A stretch of DNA of 64,000 bases from Candidatus Hermodarchaeum yapensis (GCA_016840405.1 JAEOSK010000003.1:1-64000); one strand, 5' to 3'; shown: positions 18,240 through 64,000, numbered from the stretch's first letter. A program made the numbers and translations. The notes: a model not told the origin generated them from the sequence alone.

Positions 18240-18737
18240 TTAAGGCTCGTTCTTTCGCTTCCTGGCATACAGTGGTATGGTTATGCCTACTAGGAGACCC
18301 AAGAAGATAGCTGTAAGTGGAAATCCAGGGATTTGAGCACAAGAATCCATTTCGAGCCAGATTGTATACTCTCCTGTAACGTTGACAATATCTGGTCCAG
18401 GATTCACCCATTCGATGACCCAAGTGGCGTTTACGGGTATGATGAATTCGAAACTGCCTGAGGTTTGGTTTTCATAAGCCTGTTTAAGATACTGTTCTGA
18501 ACTCGATGATGAGTTAAAGATATAGACATGGATTAGTTGATTGACACTTGACCAGTTGAAGAGTCGTCTGGCTCTCATGTCTGATGCATGCATGTTCCAA
18601 TGTCTGTAGTCTCCGGCTGGAATGGATTCATCTAATTCTTCTGTCGTCAGTTGGCACCATTCAGCTGAGACTTGTGGTAAGAGTAGGAATATGAGAAGAT
18701 ATATGCCTGTGAGGACGGGAATTATCCTTCGTGTCGT
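18240..18737 (-). CDS. Secreted/surface protein with signal peptide and IPGF-TM-basic (Loki-CTERM/PGF-CTERM-like) sorting signal
   Basis: Frame extends 48 codons upstream of ATG 18593 through a signal peptide (RRIIPVLTGIYLLIFLLLPQVSA-E); C-terminus QIPGFPLTAIFLGLLVGITIPLYARKRK; start placed at ACG after GGAGGTGG. Confidence 0.7.
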   Translation of the reverse strand, partial: TTRRIIPVLTGIYLLIFLLLPQVSAEWCQLTTEELDESIPAGDYRHWNMHASDMRARRLFNWSSVNQLIHVYIFNSSSSSEQYLKQAYENQTSGSFEFIIPVNATWVIEWVNPGPDIVNVTGEYTIWLEMDSCAQIPGFPLTAIFLGLLVGITIPLYARKRKNEP

Positions 18738-20865: not shown

Positions 20866-21495
20866 TTAGTCGAATTCTTTCAGAAGTTTATATCCTTGAA
20901 AAGCAGACCAAAAGATGAGGCCGTAGACAGCAACCTTCTGCATGGCAGCACCCTTAATAATGGGGACATTGAAGATCATTCCAATTAGATATGCGTAGGC
21001 AAGAATGGCGACGATGATTCCAATGATGGCATACAAGTTTTCATAGTCCTTGTTGAGAAGGATAGCAATTGTGTATACGATAATCGCGGACGAAATGAAA
21101 AAGAAAAACGCGTATGTTGAGTAACCGTGGAGGCTTGGAAATACATCCATGGCGAAGATTGCAAGACTTGAAACGAAAACTGCTGCAAGAAAACCAAAGA
21201 TGGTTCCTAGCCAGCTAAGGTAGAATAATCGTTGTGTACCTGTGAATATCGTTCGGATAGCGAACCAGAAGGGGATTGAACAGGCCGCTACTAGTGTACA
21301 GGTGAAAGCAAAGAGAAACCAGTTTTGAGGAGTAGGTACAACATTAGTAACAGCTTGTCCAAGTTGACTGAAGCTGTTAAAGAAGAAGTTGTAGCCGCCA
21401 GGGTAGATGAGCATGATGATGGCGGTGATGATGATGAATTGGATGCCTCCAAAGATGCCAAGGTAGGCTCCGAGTCGTTTCCATGAGATAGCTAT
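20866..21495 (-). CDS. DUF998-like membrane protein
   Basis: YPGGYNFFFNSFSQLG motif; frame extends upstream of ATG 21414 through a further TM helix to ATA codons behind AGGAGG SD. Confidence 0.7.
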   Translation of the reverse strand: MAISWKRLGAYLGIFGGIQFIIITAIIMLIYPGGYNFFFNSFSQLGQAVTNVVPTPQNWFLFAFTCTLVAACSIPFWFAIRTIFTGTQRLFYLSWLGTIFGFLAAVFVSSLAIFAMDVFPSLHGYSTYAFFFFISSAIIVYTIAILLNKDYENLYAIIGIIVAILAYAYLIGMIFNVPIIKGAAMQKVAVYGLIFWSAFQGYKLLKEFD

Positions 21496-26419: not shown

Positions 26420-28996
26420 TTAATCAGAACGAGCTTGGTTAAGGACTTTAAAGATCTGTTCTGAGTTGATAATTTTTTCACTTTCAACTTTGAATTCCAC
26501 AGGATGAACGAGAATTGCATTTGTTTGATCGCCACCTATTCCACCGTGATTACCGATGAGTTCTTCGAAGGCTGCCACTGAACCATCTTCATACACAGGA
26601 CTCATAAGAATGAGTTCACCACTACTAGGAAAGTTAGCAAGGCGAAGTAATTGTTGTCTTCGAACTTCTTCGTTTCCATAAGGTGTGAGAGGGTTCTGCC
26701 CCTTGATTTTTCCCGTCCTCAACTCTATTGCACCCTCCCCACTAAGAAGGACCGGTCCAAGTTTTTCATCCATGACAATGGCAAAGCCAATGCCCTGATG
26801 AGCAACGAGTTTTGATATGAAGCCAGGAAATTGAGTTTCAAGATTTTGCAATGTTTCACGTTTTTCTGTTGTTGTGAAATAGATCTGAGCAAGATTCCCT
26901 GAAGCACATACGAGGACATCTTTTGCTTCTACTTCTTTGTCTAGGGGAGCTTCATCTTTTTTACTAGCCTGCCGGTGGAAATATTTCAGTACTCCATGTT
27001 CTTTTTTCTCTTTTTTCGCTGCAGCTCGACCGGCATTCATGTCATCGACGAGTCCTGCAACGTAACCTCGATGGGCATCAAGGGCTTCCATTTCGCCTAC
27101 CGAGGCTTTGCCTTCGAGAAGCTCTGTGATGAGATCTTTGAGTGAAATGTTGTATCGTTGCTTGAAGGTCCAACCAGCAGACTGACCATGATCTGAAAGA
27201 ATGAACAGATGGTAAGGCCTGGGTGCGTAGTATTCAATAACGTGTAGAATTCGTCGTATTTGCTTATCCAGACCATGGAGGGCTTTGAGGGCATCTGAAG
27301 TCAATGGACCGGAGTGATGTGCAATTTCATCGTAACCTAAATAGGTCACGTAAATTGCAGGTGATCCGCGAAGAATGTCTTGAATTACCATTGATGTGGC
27401 GACATCACGCATGAAGATGTTAGTTGCGGCACGAACAATAGGATAGGCATGCGAGAGTCGGTTCATTCGTGGTTTTCTACGTGTGATGGTTTGTTTGATG
27501 ATTTGTCCAATTTCGACAAATATATCCCAGATCGTGAAGATGATGCTACGATTCATGGCATAGGGATCGAGTAGATAGTAATAGAGGTCCTGGCTTCTAC
27601 GTCGCCCTGCCTCTTCATCTTCTTGGGTAAGGGTTGACATCGTGAAAAAGGAATACGAGGCATCACCGCTGATGAGATTGCTTACACTTGAGCCGCCGTT
27701 ACGGAGAATGCCTTGACCGGAAGAGGCTCGCTGGTCGATTTCTTGAGCGTTTTTGGGGTTGTTGGAGACCATCATACGTTTTTCAGGTTTTAGATACCAA
27801 CGAAAGGCGGGGATGTCATTATTATTTCCATGCATGATACCAGCTTGGCACGATGAAGTCATGGAAGGAATTCCACAATCCCAGTGTGTGAGTATGTGAC
27901 TTCCACGTTTTAGCAATCCTTGAAGCGTAGGCATGTATTCGCGTTTTAACGCCTTTTGAATGGCTGTGTAACTAAGACCATCAATTTCCACTGCGACTAA
28001 GGCATGAGTTTGAGGGATATCAATTGTTGCCATTTCTTCCCGGATTTGTTTGGCGACATAATCATTGAAGAAAGAGATATCATCATCAAGACCTACGATA
28101 TTCACGACAAGGGCATTAACAGCTGCTAGAATGAGTCCAGCGGCTAAAGCGGCAATTAAATTGACCACATAGAATCCTGGGAGGATACGGGGTAGTTGCC
28201 ATAATATGATGCCATTAATGAGGAACATGAAAACGAATGAAATGATAAACCCCAGCCACCAGCGGGCAATTAATGAAACGAGTTTAGTGAACAGGGGACG
28301 AATTAACACGTTGATAACCGCAATTATTGCGACTGCGATGTAAACTACCCCGAGCATCGTAAGTAGATCACTTGTAACAAAACCCATTCCAGCATACAAG
28401 AAGGTGGTAACTAGTAAGCAGAGCGCATCTATGTTCCAGATGAGGATAAAACGCCCCATTCTAATATTGTATCGCGGTTGCTCCTCCAGTTGCCAAATCA
28501 GAAAAGCTCCAACGAAAAAGATGTTGATTGCCAGGATTCCGAAAAATAGGCTTAAAGCTAAATCTAGGAGGTTAAGAGGACCAATCGGCTGAAAGGGGAA
28601 AAGAACTCTGTAAACATAGCTAACTATTCCTCCAGTGATAGCGAAAACGGACACAGCCACTCCTAAAGTGATGGCCCAGGGTTTCTTGTACGCGGTTCCT
28701 AATGCAACTATCATTCCAACCAACGAAACGGTTGTTAGGATAGCACCCAACAGAGTAAAGCCATTGACAATGAAGGGAACGGTGAGCCCTACATTAATGA
28801 TTTCATTGATAATCTCAACATAGAGAGAGGGATCATTCGCATGTGCATAATTTAGGATTTCATTAAAAAGCGATGAAAGACCTGAGATAAATACTCCCAA
28901 CATCGCAAACCCGAACATCATTACAAAGTCGATGCCTGCAAAAATTCGTACAATTCGGGGCGCTCGAATAACTTCATGCACTTTTTTATCAGGCAG
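26420..28996 (-). CDS. Membrane protein: extra TM region, 4-TMS holin-like domain and alkaline-phosphatase-superfamily (type I phosphodiesterase) domain
   Basis: NVLIRP holin-IV-like motif; EIDGL, SMTSSCQAGI, GYDEIAHHSG, SDHGQ and HGGIGG; probable CTG start at 28996 (GTG at 28981 is the alternative). Confidence 0.8.
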   Translation of the reverse strand: MPDKKVHEVIRAPRIVRIFAGIDFVMMFGFAMLGVFISGLSSLFNEILNYAHANDPSLYVEIINEIINVGLTVPFIVNGFTLLGAILTTVSLVGMIVALGTAYKKPWAITLGVAVSVFAITGGIVSYVYRVLFPFQPIGPLNLLDLALSLFFGILAINIFFVGAFLIWQLEEQPRYNIRMGRFILIWNIDALCLLVTTFLYAGMGFVTSDLLTMLGVVYIAVAIIAVINVLIRPLFTKLVSLIARWWLGFIISFVFMFLINGIILWQLPRILPGFYVVNLIAALAAGLILAAVNALVVNIVGLDDDISFFNDYVAKQIREEMATIDIPQTHALVAVEIDGLSYTAIQKALKREYMPTLQGLLKRGSHILTHWDCGIPSMTSSCQAGIMHGNNNDIPAFRWYLKPEKRMMVSNNPKNAQEIDQRASSGQGILRNGGSSVSNLISGDASYSFFTMSTLTQEDEEAGRRRSQDLYYYLLDPYAMNRSIIFTIWDIFVEIGQIIKQTITRRKPRMNRLSHAYPIVRAATNIFMRDVATSMVIQDILRGSPAIYVTYLGYDEIAHHSGPLTSDALKALHGLDKQIRRILHVIEYYAPRPYHLFILSDHGQSAGWTFKQRYNISLKDLITELLEGKASVGEMEALDAHRGYVAGLVDDMNAGRAAAKKEKKEHGVLKYFHRQASKKDEAPLDKEVEAKDVLVCASGNLAQIYFTTTEKRETLQNLETQFPGFISKLVAHQGIGFAIVMDEKLGPVLLSGEGAIELRTGKIKGQNPLTPYGNEEVRRQQLLRLANFPSSGELILMSPVYEDGSVAAFEELIGNHGGIGGDQTNAILVHPVEFKVESEKIINSEQIFKVLNQARSD

Positions 28997-29159
28997 TTAA
29001 CACACCTCATGTCCAGTTTGCAGTGTAAATCTTAAGAGTGCGTTTCTTCCTTTTATTTCATTTTCCGCCCTAAGAAATGAGATTTTCTTGTGAATCTGCG
29101 AAAGCTATTTGTGGAGAATGCTCTGACTTGCATCAGGTTTTGTGTTTGGTGAGTCGAGT

Positions 29160-47395: not shown

Positions 47396-48528
47396 GCTGC
47401 ATCAGCCTCCTGAATGCGTTTTATGATTTCATTCGAATGATGAACTTCTCCAGCGACCTTCGGCACACTCTCAACATTTGCGTGGCATGCTACTCGAGCG
47501 ATTTCGTTGACCATCATGCCCATATTCATTTCGACAACAAGAACATGGTGAACATCTTTCATGAGTTCTGATAGGTGTAATTCTGGAAGTGGCCATAGCG
47601 TTTTCAGTCGGATGAACCCAACAGCCGTTCCTTCCTCTCTGGCTGTTTGAACGGCTTGATAGGCAGGTCGTGCAGCCGCTCCAAAACTTAGCACAATAGT
47701 GTCTGCACCTTCAAGATTGAAGGTTTCCAAGTCCAGCTTCTCTTTTCGTAACATTGCACCTGCTGCCTGATTCTTTTTGAAAATCCACTTAATGGTGGCC
47801 CGGAGGAATTGGGGAGAGTAATCGCGAACACCAGTAGGTCGATGGGCAGAACCAGTGACAAGGAGATTGTGTCCATCACCAAAGCGTGGCATTTCATACC
47901 GTAGAAAAGTCTCCTCGGGACGTGGATGTTTTTTCGTCAGTTTTTCACGGTTGATTACTTCCATCTCACCTGATTCCGGAATTTTTAACGGTTCACGCAT
48001 GTAACTGACTTCGCCATCTGTCATAATGAGTGTCGGTGTTCGGAAACGTTCCGCGTAGTTGAATGCATGGATTGTGAAATTGAACATTTCTTGAACAGAC
48101 CAAGGGCAAAAGGCGATGGGAGCAATATCACCGTGGGTGCCATACCGGGCTTGCATAATGTCTTGTTGACCAGGCATCGTGGCTTGACCGGTGCTTGGTC
48201 CGGATCTTTGAGCATCGACGACCACGAGGGGTGTTTCTGTATGGTAAGCGTAGCCGAGATTTTCCTGCATTAAACTAAAGCCGGGACCTGAAGTGGCAGT
48301 CATGGTTTTACCACCTGCCCATGAAGCACCAATGATGGCTGCTATTGAAGCGATTTCATCTTCCATTTGGAGATAATACCCTTTCACTTGCGGGAGGCGT
48401 AAAGCCATGTGCTCAACAATACTATTCGCAGGAGTAATTGGATAACCGGCGAAAAAGCGACATCCTGCATAGATTGCACCTTCCGCACATGCGGTTCCTC
48501 CATCAACAAAATGTACACCGGGTTTCAT
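47392..48528 (-). CDS. korA: 2-oxoacid:ferredoxin oxidoreductase alpha subunit
   Basis: GYPITP, QMEDEIA, TATSGPGFSLMQE, QRSGPSTG and VVEMNMG motifs. Confidence 0.93.
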   Translation of the reverse strand: MKPGVHFVDGGTACAEGAIYAGCRFFAGYPITPANSIVEHMALRLPQVKGYYLQMEDEIASIAAIIGASWAGGKTMTATSGPGFSLMQENLGYAYHTETPLVVVDAQRSGPSTGQATMPGQQDIMQARYGTHGDIAPIAFCPWSVQEMFNFTIHAFNYAERFRTPTLIMTDGEVSYMREPLKIPESGEMEVINREKLTKKHPRPEETFLRYEMPRFGDGHNLLVTGSAHRPTGVRDYSPQFLRATIKWIFKKNQAAGAMLRKEKLDLETFNLEGADTIVLSFGAAARPAYQAVQTAREEGTAVGFIRLKTLWPLPELHLSELMKDVHHVLVVEMNMGMMVNEIARVACHANVESVPKVAGEVHHSNEIIKRIQEADAA

Positions 48529-48773
48529 TCTTCTTCCACCTCAACCATGATTGCGGCATCTGGACATCGTTTTTCACACAGTCGACAGGCCACTCCCTCC
48601 TTTCCGCGAACGAGCATGCACCGCGTTTCACCACCCTCAATTAGACAGGGACTATGACCACCCCAAGCGGTAGGCTCATCCTCTTCCAAGACCTTTGTTG
48701 GACAAAAGAGGATGCAAATTTCACAGCCCTTACAGAGTTCCCGATTAACGGTAATCTTGACCTGTCGTGTGAT
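48525..48773 (-). CDS. korD: 2-oxoacid:ferredoxin oxidoreductase delta (ferredoxin) subunit; missed by the ORF track
   Basis: Translation (I)TRQVKITVNRELCKGCEICILFCPTKVL...CRLCEKRCPDAAIMVEVEEE*; TGA overlaps the korA ATG; no ATG/GTG/TTG upstream of the first Cys cluster. Confidence 0.85.
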   Translation of the reverse strand: MTRQVKITVNRELCKGCEICILFCPTKVLEEDEPTAWGGHSPCLIEGGETRCMLVRGKEGVACRLCEKRCPDAAIMVEVEEE

Positions 48774-48874
48774 GTTAATATCCCCCTGAAATCAATTGGA
48801 CGTGAGTTCTCAGCGCTGGTGAATTGGTCTGGCTACCTAAAGTTTTATGGAATGGACATATGCACAATTTTTGA

Positions 48875-57983: not shown

Positions 57984-59075
57984 GTGAACTACCATCGACT
58001 GAAGTTGATGGCTTCTATGCATTTGCATAGTTAAGGGTCGGTTCACGGGCGACCCCGCACAGGGGCATATAGCCAAGGTGCCTCTCGACTTTCCGAGCGA
58101 TATTAATGGCCCCATTGAGGTCCGCATTATACTCTCCACATGCAGAACACCGAAACCGGGCCTGGCTTGAACGCATCCCACGTCGACCACACACGTGACA
58201 GGTGATACTGGTATACGCCTCATTCACCATGACAACAGGTAAACCCCGCAACAATGCCTTATAGATTATCATCTTGGTCAGCTTGTGGAAGGGCAAATTC
58301 CCGATGATTCTTCGCACCCGTCTACCCTTTTTCTGAGTTCTTTCTCTGATTCCCATCAGATCACCAATCGCAATCCAAGACGACGTTGCATCCGCCAGCT
58401 CCACAATCTCCTTGCTTATTTGGTGGAGGACCGCTTCCACTCGCCTTTTCTCCCTATGACCGATTCGCCGGATTACTCGCTTAAGACCTCGTTTTTGTAA
58501 CCGCCTGCGGAGCCACGCATGATGTCGCCTGATTCCTCGCACAAATCGACCAAAAAACTGAGGTTGTTTAATGCATCCGTTATGCAACAACACCGTTGTT
58601 GCCATGATGCGTTCACCCAGGCCTACACCCAGCACCGAGATACACCGTCGAAAGGGTGGGACCTCAACCGTGAATACCAGATTCACATAGAACTTTCCCT
58701 GTCGACGAAAAAGTTTGCTCTCCCCTAATTTCGCACCCTTGGGAAAGGCGCGATGTGGGATGATAGGGATATTGATTCCTCCCCGTTGACCATGGACTCG
58801 AACTCGGAGAAACCAGAAAGTCTTCGACTTGCGTAGGTCGATGAGATCTTTCCTAAGAGAGAGGGGATAATCCTTATCCCGTTTGGGTTGCTTGTAGTAG
58901 CGTCAGGCTTGTTGACGGTTGGCCGAATAGAGCTGAACGCTTCGTTCCCCTCGAAGGAATCTTTGTAAGTTATTGTATTCCGTTTCCAGAAGGGCTCTTT
59001 TTTTGTGGTGAGTTTGACTATGCCACATTTGATTGTCAACCTCACCTGCATATCAATGTGTGGACACAGTTTCTT
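57984..59075 (-). mobile_element. IS200/IS605-family (IS1341-like, tnpB-only) element, decayed
   Basis: tnpB remnants plus a right-end hairpin GAAGCCATCAACTTCAGTCGATGGTAGTTCAC ending in TCAC at 57984; left end approximate; no tnpA. Confidence 0.8.
58015..59051 (-). pseudogene. tnpB: TnpB RNA-guided nuclease pseudogene
   Basis: Frameshift in A7 (58998-59004), in-frame TGA (58903-58905), RuvC-I GVDLG changed to GVGLG; zinc finger CHVC...CSAC and NADLNGAINI retained. Confidence 0.85.
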
Positions 59076-62501: not shown

Positions 62502-62572
62502 TTGGTTTTGGCGAAAGGATTTTGTTTGCTAGTACTCATTCTAAGGGTCTTCAAACTATGGTGGTGTAAGTT

Positions 62573-63601
62573 ATTCAAACGGGTATTTCTGTTCGAGAAG
62601 GAGATTTCATCGAAACCCGTGAGGGGTTGATATTTGATGTCAAGGGGCTAGTACACCCCCCAGACAAGGTGATTGCGTTTCTCCGGTATTATCCTTCACC
62701 CAAGGGTAAACGATCACGTGGTGGACAACAGTATGATAAAGTCTACCATTTGTCAAATCGGTTTGATTTTCTACGACAGCACTACCCGCAGTACCTTTAC
62801 CATGACGAAGTTTTTGGACGGGAGTTGCAAGGTGTTCCACATTCTTCTATTAAACATGTGTACCAGCCACAGGCGAGCCTGGCAAAGTTAAAACAGTTGG
62901 ATACACGTGATCCACTTCAACAAGATGTTGTAACTTTTTCACAATTGATAGAGCAGGCAGCCCGAATCCCTGAAGAAAGTCTAGGAATCTCAGGTAGCGT
63001 CCAAGTTGATTTGCACGGTCCAACTTCGGATATTGACCTGATTGTTTATGGCAGACGTGAAGCACGAGCCGTGCAATTATCGTTGAAGCGAGCGCAACTT
63101 GTACCAGAAGAAGGGATTTCGAAGTATCACTTGGATACGTATCGCCCCGTCTATAATCTTCGTTGGAGTGGAACGGGTATCCCCATTGAAACGATGTTAC
63201 TTGTTGATGGTTTGAAATCTATGCATGGTATCTTTGGTGGACACCACTATTTTGTCCGAGCAGTCTTAAACTGGGATCAGGTTCAGAGACAATATGGGGA
63301 TTATACATTTCATCCTTTAGGTCAAGCACGGGTCCGCTGCATCATAACGGATGATCGTGATGGCCTATTTACTCCATGTCGATACGAAATTGAAGATGTT
63401 GAGTTTCTAAAAGGGGAGGAGTGGGATGAAGTGCGAGAGATTGTGAGTTTTCGCGGGAGATTCACTGAGCAGGTTAGGCAGGATGAGGAAGTCATTGTTC
63501 AAGGTTCGCTAGAAGCTGTTCAGCAGGGGAAGGAGCAATGGGTTCGGTTTGTGTTGGGTGATCATCCATCGGATATCTTATTACCGAGTAGCCTGCTTTA
63601 G
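62573..63601 (+). CDS. Predicted archaeal nucleotidyltransferase (COG1665-like)
   Basis: GISGS...SDIDLIVYG catalytic motif; N-terminal REGDFIETREGLIF lies upstream of the TTG, implying an ATT start at 62573. Confidence 0.8.
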   Translation: MQTGISVREGDFIETREGLIFDVKGLVHPPDKVIAFLRYYPSPKGKRSRGGQQYDKVYHLSNRFDFLRQHYPQYLYHDEVFGRELQGVPHSSIKHVYQPQASLAKLKQLDTRDPLQQDVVTFSQLIEQAARIPEESLGISGSVQVDLHGPTSDIDLIVYGRREARAVQLSLKRAQLVPEEGISKYHLDTYRPVYNLRWSGTGIPIETMLLVDGLKSMHGIFGGHHYFVRAVLNWDQVQRQYGDYTFHPLGQARVRCIITDDRDGLFTPCRYEIEDVEFLKGEEWDEVREIVSFRGRFTEQVRQDEEVIVQGSLEAVQQGKEQWVRFVLGDHPSDILLPSSLL

Positions 63602-63610
63602 AGTACAGGA

Positions 63611-64000
63611 ATGGTGGTTTCCGAGGTGGCGCGTCACCCAAAGGACAAGGATTTCGTGGAAACACAAGATGGATTGCTGTTTACTGTGGTGGGATACCTG
63701 CACCCACCCGATGCATATACCACGTACTTGAAGTATCGTCCCGATCCTGAGGGAAAGTGGGAACGGCAAGGCGTTCACTATCGTCGGATGATACAAGTGT
63801 ATAGTGCTGCAGAAGTGCAATCAAGTAGTAATTGGTTGCGTGAGTATTATCCTGAGTATATTTCACTGGATAGGATTCGAGGCTTTGAATTGGCATTAGT
63901 GCCTTGGAAGAGTATCATTGCCTACTATTTACCAGAAGTCCGAATGTCGGAAATTATGAGAGATCCACAAGACCCGTTAGAATCGAGAACTCGAGCTCTT
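63611..64000 (+). CDS. Second nucleotidyltransferase paralog (COG1665-like), 3'-truncated by the window edge
   Basis: MVVSEVARHPKDKDFVETQDGLLFTVVGYLHPPDAYTTYLKY aligns with the N-terminus of the upstream gene; frame open to the window end. Confidence 0.75.
   Translation, partial: MVVSEVARHPKDKDFVETQDGLLFTVVGYLHPPDAYTTYLKYRPDPEGKWERQGVHYRRMIQVYSAAEVQSSSNWLREYYPEYISLDRIRGFELALVPWKSIIAYYLPEVRMSEIMRDPQDPLESRTRAL

Follow-up and report, generated by a model that had tools for sequence, protein, structure and literature searches.

Do conserved genes of a Thor-type Asgard archaeon begin at codons that standard gene callers do not admit? The question is raised by a 64,000-nt stretch of DNA (the window; positions 1-64000 of contig C42 in the 77-contig, 2.7-Mb, 86% complete metagenome-assembled genome (MAG) G000), in which five genes had been predicted from the sequence alone to start at ATT, ATC, ATA, ACG, or CTG. 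Reading of the sequence located all five near-cognate codons, the upstream in-frame stops, and the Shine-Dalgarno (SD)-like motifs where that original prediction had placed them, four on the minus strand and one, ATT 62573, on the plus strand (Table 1). An in-frame stop lies 0-6 codons upstream of each codon, and an SD-like motif precedes each by 5-7 nt, which corresponds to an aligned spacing of 7-8 for all five. The 3' end of the 16S rRNA of G000, read directly, is ...GGATCACCTCCT, which makes AGGAGGTGATCC the ideal SD motif; the five motifs are complementary to this tail and stand at the spacing of canonical starts, where ATG peaks at 7-10. The 16S rRNA gene itself (contig C71, 619-4212, minus strand) occupies 3.6 kb for a 1478-position model, implying large introns, and the helix-45 loop carries an insertion of approximately 32 nt just ahead of ...CCTGCGGCTGGATCACCTCCT. 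Database relatives of its proteins carry the labels Thorarchaeota or Promethearchaeota, which places the source among the Asgard archaea. A scan of the 64-kb window against Rfam returned no matches.

Table 1. Coordinates of the proposed near-cognate starts in the window and of the features associated with them.
Feature	Position	Strand	Remarks
Candidate promoter (BRE/TATA), block CGAAAGGATTTTGT	62512..62525	+	nearly invariant in 14 genus orthologues; 70-nt intergenic region
Mini-ORF ATG GTG GTG TAA	62558..62569	+	GGTGGTG 62560-62566, SD-like motif; TAA 62567-62569, in-frame stop
Nucleotidyltransferase (NTP_transf_2) gene	62573..63601	+	proposed ATT start 62573; stop TAG 63599-63601; Pfam PF01909
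Tandem paralogue	63611..64000, runs past window end	+	ordinary ATG start; N-terminal yardstick
korD, delta (2x[4Fe-4S] ferredoxin-like) subunit of 2-oxoacid:ferredoxin oxidoreductase	48525..48773	-	proposed ATC start 48773; Fer4 E 1.4e-8
SD-like AGGGGGAT of korD	48780..48787	-	pairs with anti-SD through one G.U pair
Multi-pass membrane protein gene	20866..21495	-	proposed ATA start 21495; SD AGGAGG 21508-21503; TGA 21516-21514
Secreted or membrane-anchored protein gene	18240..18737	-	proposed ACG start 18737; SD GGAGGTG 18749-18743; TGA 18755-18753
858-aa membrane phosphodiesterase-family gene	26420..28996	-	proposed CTG start 28996; SD GAGGTG 29008-29003; TAA 28999-28997; Pfam PF01663

In four of the five genes, namely korD and those for the nucleotidyltransferase, the ACG-initiated protein, and the multi-pass membrane protein, no ATG, GTG, or TTG comes before residues on which the protein depends. 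In the fifth, a GTG stands five codons past CTG 28996. At the orthologous positions the near-cognate codon is either kept or swapped with ATG, GTG, or TTG, and the ATG anticipated at equivalent positions was seen for ATA 21495 and CTG 28996 and, in the sister genus, for korD and the nucleotidyltransferase gene. Independent MAGs carry the same codons, and assembly error, which the original prediction had named as grounds for abandoning it, is excluded for the five sites by that recurrence. The five genes have dN/dS values of 0.05-0.23 at dS 0.23-0.47 with no internal stops; they are under purifying selection and are not pseudogenes. From these comparisons it is very probable that intact conserved genes, including korD and rpoA1 (RNA polymerase A', the largest subunit), start at ATT, ATC, ATA, ACG, or CTG just behind an SD, and we consider it likely that the five sites in the window are genuine translation starts at the near-cognate codons AUU, AUC, AUA, ACG, and CUG.

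The nucleotidyltransferase gene was compared with its orthologues in 14 genomes of the genus and four of the sister genus. ATT 62573 stands 6 nt after GGTGGTG, which pairs at six of seven positions with the 16S tail and is kept at the nucleotide level in 12 of the 14 genus orthologues, while the codons that follow it vary freely; in those genus orthologues that bear GGTGGTG, the motif is followed at exactly 6 nt by an Ile codon (ATT, ATC, or ATA). The motif position reads GTAGTG in G007 and ATGGAGTTG in G006, the latter having canonical options. Roughly 35 nt upstream of the SD, the block listed in Table 1 is held among the 14 genus orthologues while its flanks vary, and it may be the promoter of the gene, which would give a leader of approximately 30 nt.

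The first ATG, GTG, or TTG after ATT 62573 is TTG 62627, and the public callers choose a canonical start for this gene, giving a product of 324 aa. If such downstream codons were the real starts, the proteins would be shorter and the conserved residues ahead of them untranslated. The proposed motif REGDFIETREGL (62594 onward, ahead of TTG 62627) does align, as predicted, with KDKDFVETQDGL of the downstream tandem paralogue, in an alignment of 31% identity (E 1.6e-43) that begins at query residue 9. TTG 62627 is itself not conserved among close kin, being CTG in G002 and TTA in G005, and in these three genomes the stretch between ATT and TTG has changed synonymously (GGT/GGA, CGA/CGG, GGA/GGG) and has kept REGDFIET; the dN/dS of the whole gene is 0.10-0.11. 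In the sister genus an ATG lies five codons ahead of REGDF. Elsewhere, a downstream start would fall behind the first Cys cluster of korD, would cost the ACG-initiated protein its signal peptide, and would open the membrane protein 27 codons on, within its first hydrophobic helix, and in five matches of the genome-wide census described below a Pfam domain begins upstream of the canonical codon. The GTG five codons into the phosphodiesterase-family gene is a plausible start of this kind, but as an account of the five sites the downstream reading is improbable.

In G000, G002, G005, and G014 a TAA directly follows the GGTGGTG motif, leaving ATH (ATT, ATC, or ATA) as the sole start option there. 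The protein tree places G014 together with G003 and G004 (support 100/99), whose codons at this place are TTA and TCA, so the TAA must have arisen at least twice; its origin at least twice from sense codons is as expected of an untranslated spacer. In 10 of the 14 genus orthologues the reading frame runs open through GTG GTG, and a GTG start is possible in those ten. In the window, the in-frame ATG GTG GTG (62558-62566) ahead of the TAA makes a three-codon mini-ORF that the original prediction did not mention, and raises the possibility of termination and reinitiation: ribosomes would start at ATG 62558 (GTG in G014), translate two or three codons, stop at TAA, and restart at ATT 3 nt on, with GGTGGTG acting as a coding-plus-retention sequence and not as a primary SD. 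The arrangement ATG GTG GTG TAA stands directly before the ORF in G000, G002, and G005, with GTG GTG TAA in G014, and short-distance coupling is documented in archaea (PMC10666635). Against this, no SD was seen before the ATG or GTG of the mini-ORF, and upstream of korD, ACG 18737, and CTG 28996 there is no mini-ORF with its own start codon to which the scheme could apply. Since a restart needs ATT as a start codon anyway, reinitiation amounts to a variant of the main reading, and we regard it as unlikely. Under direct initiation at ATH, callers confined to canonical codons would be expected to truncate the gene, and the public calls are indeed shorter in the TAA-bearing clade (324, 320, and 295 aa) than in relatives (345-346 aa), bearing out the claim that such genes are cut short.

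For korD the original prediction had left two options, ATC 48773 or ATT 48779. Reading along the minus strand, the leader runs from TGA (48794-48792) through the SD-like motif to ATT 48779 and then ATC 48773; orthologues carry GAGGAGGA or GGAGGA as the SD. At the position of ATC 48773, 13 of 14 genus genomes have ATC, ATT, or ATA, whereas ATT 48779 is not conserved, and the start is therefore assigned to ATC 48773 and the second option is dropped. The remaining genome, G008, has TTA at the start position of its orthologue (contig C290) and lacks any canonical start ahead of the Cys cluster, which could mean that the start is weaker still, that the sequence is in error, or that this copy is decaying. 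Between the in-frame stop and the CxxCxxC motif, no canonical codon was found in the korD orthologues except a TTG within the SD in G011. The equivalent codon is ATG in all four genomes of the sister genus, where it stands one codon later. The dN/dS of korD is 0.05-0.11, and the ORFs that follow it carry POR_N plus PFOR_II, TPP_enzyme_C, and POR domains; by domain content the locus is a delta-alpha-beta-gamma 2-oxoacid:ferredoxin oxidoreductase operon.

The korD leaders also bear on stop-codon readthrough or recoding, by which ribosomes from an upstream canonical start would pass through TAA or TGA, and for which the in-frame ATG before the TAA of the nucleotidyltransferase gene would be suitably placed. 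In korD of G012, G010, G001, and G007, the SD (GAGGAGGA) and ATH are separated by a TGA or TAA, so that both stops occur and at varying positions, and in several genomes korD has no upstream canonical start from which readthrough could begin. The TAA of the nucleotidyltransferase gene, for its part, has two separate origins from sense codons. Programmed readthrough would call for a single conserved stop that keeps its place, together with an upstream canonical start in all orthologues; this combination was not found, and we consider the explanation extremely improbable. Across 14 species the third base of the korD start varies among T, C, and A and is never G, which suggests that a weak start is maintained.

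The three remaining sites differ in age and in clarity. The multi-pass membrane protein gene had been labeled DUF998, a label without Pfam support, as its single match is a weak one to YibE_F (E 0.009). The position of its ATA start is ATG in G002 and G005, TTG in G007, and CTG in G001, and the dN/dS of the gene against G002 is 0.16. Sequence comparison thus places ATA 21495, found in G000 alone, as a recent change in that genome, possibly a mutation with a mildly harmful effect. The G005 orthologue (contig C218) keeps its ATG and has TAA at codon 4 (ATG CCT ATC TAA TGG); the rest of that ORF is 89% identical to the window copy, so another three-codon mini-ORF stands before a conserved frame. 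The uniqueness of ATA 21495, the early TAA in G005, and the fact that all compared genomes are MAGs of 72-91% completeness would each fit a different view, in which mutation or mis-assembly has altered the start codons of genes that are dying or artefactual. As a general explanation this is very improbable, given the same codons in independently assembled genomes, the low dN/dS values with intact frames, the retention of ATH at the core genes korD and rpoA1 across genus or family, and an enrichment, described below, that is specific both to near-cognate codons and to ATG spacing.

Genuine near-cognate starts are likewise indicated at ACG 18737, where the codons after ACG encode RR, a hydrophobic stretch, and VSA, in agreement with the signal peptide noted earlier. 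G000, G002, and G005 all have ACG, and among them the spacer from GGAGGTG to ACG differs in length by one T; a 1-nt indel between SD and ACG means that the spacer is not coding. Paralogues and orthologues show an SD, 7 nt, and ATG or GTG followed by xRK, aligned with ACG-T-R-R, and the dN/dS of the gene is 0.20-0.23. CTG 28996 directly follows its TAA, 6 nt behind GAGGTG, while the alternative GTG 28981 would be 21 nt from the SD. G000, G002, and G005 share the pair TAA CTG, and CTG lies 11 codons ahead of APRIV, the same distance as the ATG in G003 and G004. The stretch between CTG and GTG has few substitutions, all of them non-synonymous (whole-gene dN/dS 0.12), and this site is, as had been said of it at the outset, the weakest of the five, not separable with certainty from a start at GTG 28981. 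ATG 29010 opens a 29-codon ORF with a CxxC motif (28921-29010, minus strand) over the SD and CTG of this gene; this ATG is absent in G002 and G005, and the small ORF is thus probably not a gene.

A genome-wide count of SD motifs paired with near-cognate codons had been proposed as a check, and it was carried out on 2313 stop-to-stop ORFs that do not overlap and have 120 codons or more, together covering 86% of the genome. In-frame codons before any canonical start were scored by ungapped pairing of the upstream sequence to the anti-SD, and an any-frame guard dropped codons with a canonical triplet nearby. ATG starts of G000 peak at an aligned spacing of 7-10. With an SD score of at least 14 and a spacing of 7-9, ATT, ATC, ATA, CTG, and ACG yielded 25 hits in 953 as opposed to 74 in 8446 for other non-start codons, a 3-fold enrichment at ATG spacing (ratio 3.0, Fisher p 1.2e-5) that reached 4.6 at a score of at least 16 and was 2.0-3.5 against composition-matched permuted codons at spacing 7-9. 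No near-cognate excess was present across the whole genome at the flanking spacings of 4-6, 10-12, and 12-14 (ratio ~1). The best three non-canonical codons in the census were CTG, ACG, and ATC. When spacing was widened to 6-10 with the in-frame guard alone, little enrichment was obtained at low SD thresholds, and many of the control matches in this wider census were direct neighbours of near-cognate codons.

The excess corresponds to approximately 17 genes (about 30 at a score of at least 11), or ~1% of long ORFs and 5-9% of starts with the same SD criterion, and the near-cognate share of starts climbs with SD strength. The assertion that such initiation is common in this lineage therefore holds for genes with a strong SD and does not hold overall. 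A codon-usage test upstream of the first canonical codon was too weak to give more than an upper bound of ~90 ORFs (~4%), with interior windows at 0.076 +/- 0.11 and known non-coding ones at -0.077 +/- 0.14. Several candidates were set aside. An apparent near-cognate excess at spacing 2-4 is an artefact, as the ATC belongs to the SD consensus GGTGATC; an ATA before fibrillarin looks false, the domain fitting the canonical start; AAG 42519 in the window gives way to a true start at ATG 42555 with its own SD; and an ATC inside the REGDFIET coding region of the nucleotidyltransferase gene is a census false positive.

Outside the window, five of 20 census matches have a Pfam domain that begins before the first canonical codon is reached: RNA polymerase Rpb1 domain 1 (ATC), PHP (CTG), Oxidored_FMN (ATT), Radical_SAM (CTG), and a Fer4 protein (ACG). 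The next canonical codon is 74 codons on in the Radical_SAM gene, and there is none within 100 codons in the Fer4 gene. Among the remaining matches an NYN protein is borderline, fibrillarin looks false as noted above, and the others are uninformative. Of the 17 family genomes, 14 open rpoA1 with ATC, ATT, or ATA and the other three (G012, G001, and G007) with ATG, always behind AAGGAGG; in other Asgard families the same position is ATG, GTG, or TTG. The Oxidored_FMN ATT (G000 and G002) is replaced by GTG, TTG, and ATG in G010, G014, and G007, respectively, the Radical_SAM CTG by ATG in three relatives, and the Fer4 ACG by ATG in G016. A tnpB ACG site (contig C1, score 16, spacing 7) is also among the census matches. 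Within the window, a 295-codon ORF (58018-58902, minus strand) with a TnpB-like N-terminal sequence lacks ATG, GTG, and TTG throughout its first 72 codons and may represent a shortened IS element or another non-canonical start.

By their distribution among relatives, the sites of korD, the nucleotidyltransferase gene, and rpoA1 are old, having been held as ATH across the genus or family, and ATA 21495, CTG 28996, and several census matches are recent flips from ATG in the clade of G000, G002, and G005. The Oxidored_FMN ATT, Radical_SAM CTG, Fer4 ACG, CTG 28996, and ACG 18737 are shared by these three genomes alone, with ATG, GTG, or TTG in relatives. The distribution indicates fast start-codon turnover in the clade, an indication confounded by the sites having been picked in G000.

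The same census was applied to G019, a complete 1.42-Mb genome from a different family of the same phylum that has the same anti-SD. Near-cognate codons gave 22 of 612 and the controls 24 of 3943 (ratio 5.9, p 1.6e-8), an excess of approximately 18 among 1282 ORFs that consists mostly of ATA. This roughly 6-fold enrichment means that the habit reaches beyond the genus and that a distant Asgard lineage shows it no less strongly; the census compares Asgard genomes with one another, and the baseline for typical prokaryotes is that of the literature. Whether relaxed start choice extends Asgard-wide, with several percent of SD-led genes including that for RNA polymerase A' using AUH, CUG, or ACG and with flips between canonical and near-cognate codons over short evolutionary distances, we judge to be an even question.

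The initiation machinery of G000 looks ordinary. Its aIF1 gene (PF01253, 71.5 bits, contig C10) starts at ATG behind GAGG, and its initiator tRNA has a CAU anticodon with the usual A1 and G-C stem; aragorn found 16-20 tRNAs in the genome. In vitro, aIF1 of Sulfolobus rejects AUU, as summarised in PMC4705826, and this rejection together with the ordinary-looking aIF1 here counts against near-cognate starts. In the mechanism that we propose, the 16S 3' tail (...GGAUCACCUCCU) would pair with the SD motif and so place the P site 5-7 nt beyond it (aligned spacing 7-9), where the ordinary initiator Met-tRNA with its CAU anticodon would be accepted at a near-cognate codon with one mismatch. The N-terminal residue would then be Met, and the weak start may lower or regulate output. 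The idea of recurrent SD-driven near-cognate initiation that gene callers miss draws support from four directions, namely site anatomy, orthologues, selection, and the spacing-specific enrichment.

If these starts are used, annotation is affected, as Asgard genomes are mined for eukaryote-like proteins with callers limited to ATG, GTG, and TTG. Canonical calling would reduce korD from 82 to 53 aa and the nucleotidyltransferase from 342 to 324 aa; korD, the nucleotidyltransferase, and RNA polymerase A' would be shortened or missed altogether, at the cost of N-terminal domains and signal peptides. Were the Asgard-wide reading true, present Asgard proteomes would be systematically cut short at such genes. 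Genus-wide ATH at korD, as opposed to ATG in the sister genus, suggests that the weak start is kept by selection, and a selected weak korD start could set subunit stoichiometry or overall output. A tolerance of aIF1 and aIF2 for AUH, ACG, and CUG under a strong SD would also bear on the evolution of start stringency between archaea and eukaryotes.

In comparison with known systems, one of the closest resemblances in form is to bacterial infC and pcnB. The pcnB gene of E. coli has an AUU/AUH-type start, and NCBI translation table 11 lists ATT, ATC, ATA, and CTG as rare starts. Like infC and pcnB, the sites described here would combine a near-cognate codon behind an SD with the initiator tRNA, are conserved in relatives, and are missed by callers that accept ATG, GTG, and TTG. 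E. coli starts are 83% AUG, 14% GUG, and 3% UUG, with AUU at infC, encoding IF3, as the classical exception (PMC4705826). Whereas E. coli has a handful of near-cognate genes, here they are estimated at 5-9% of SD-supported starts and include those for RNA polymerase A' and an oxidoreductase subunit. The infC start serves feedback by a fidelity factor; no such autoregulation was seen here, as aIF1 of G000 begins at ATG, and the machinery is of the archaeal/eukaryotic type (aIF1, aIF1A, and aIF2), unlike that of E. coli.

As in archaea generally, SD-led mRNAs would be positioned by the 16S tail. Reviews give archaeal starts as AUG, GUG, and UUG only (PMC7531240, PMC4705826), and ribosome profiling of Haloferax volcanii found ~30% of putative alternative initiation sites to be near-cognate, which were set aside as possible false positives (PMC7261190); a literature search found no account of conserved near-cognate starts in Asgard archaea or in archaeal core genes. 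Unlike the picture in these three accounts, the starts proposed here are conserved, open the main ORF, and occur in core genes. Asgard archaea are described as the closest prokaryotic kin of eukaryotes (PMC12993045), and the proposed starts resemble eukaryotic initiation at CUG, ACG, and AUU in having the same codon spectrum and eIF1/eIF2-type machinery. Eukaryotes, however, find such codons by scanning with Kozak context, whereas here the position would be fixed by SD spacing.
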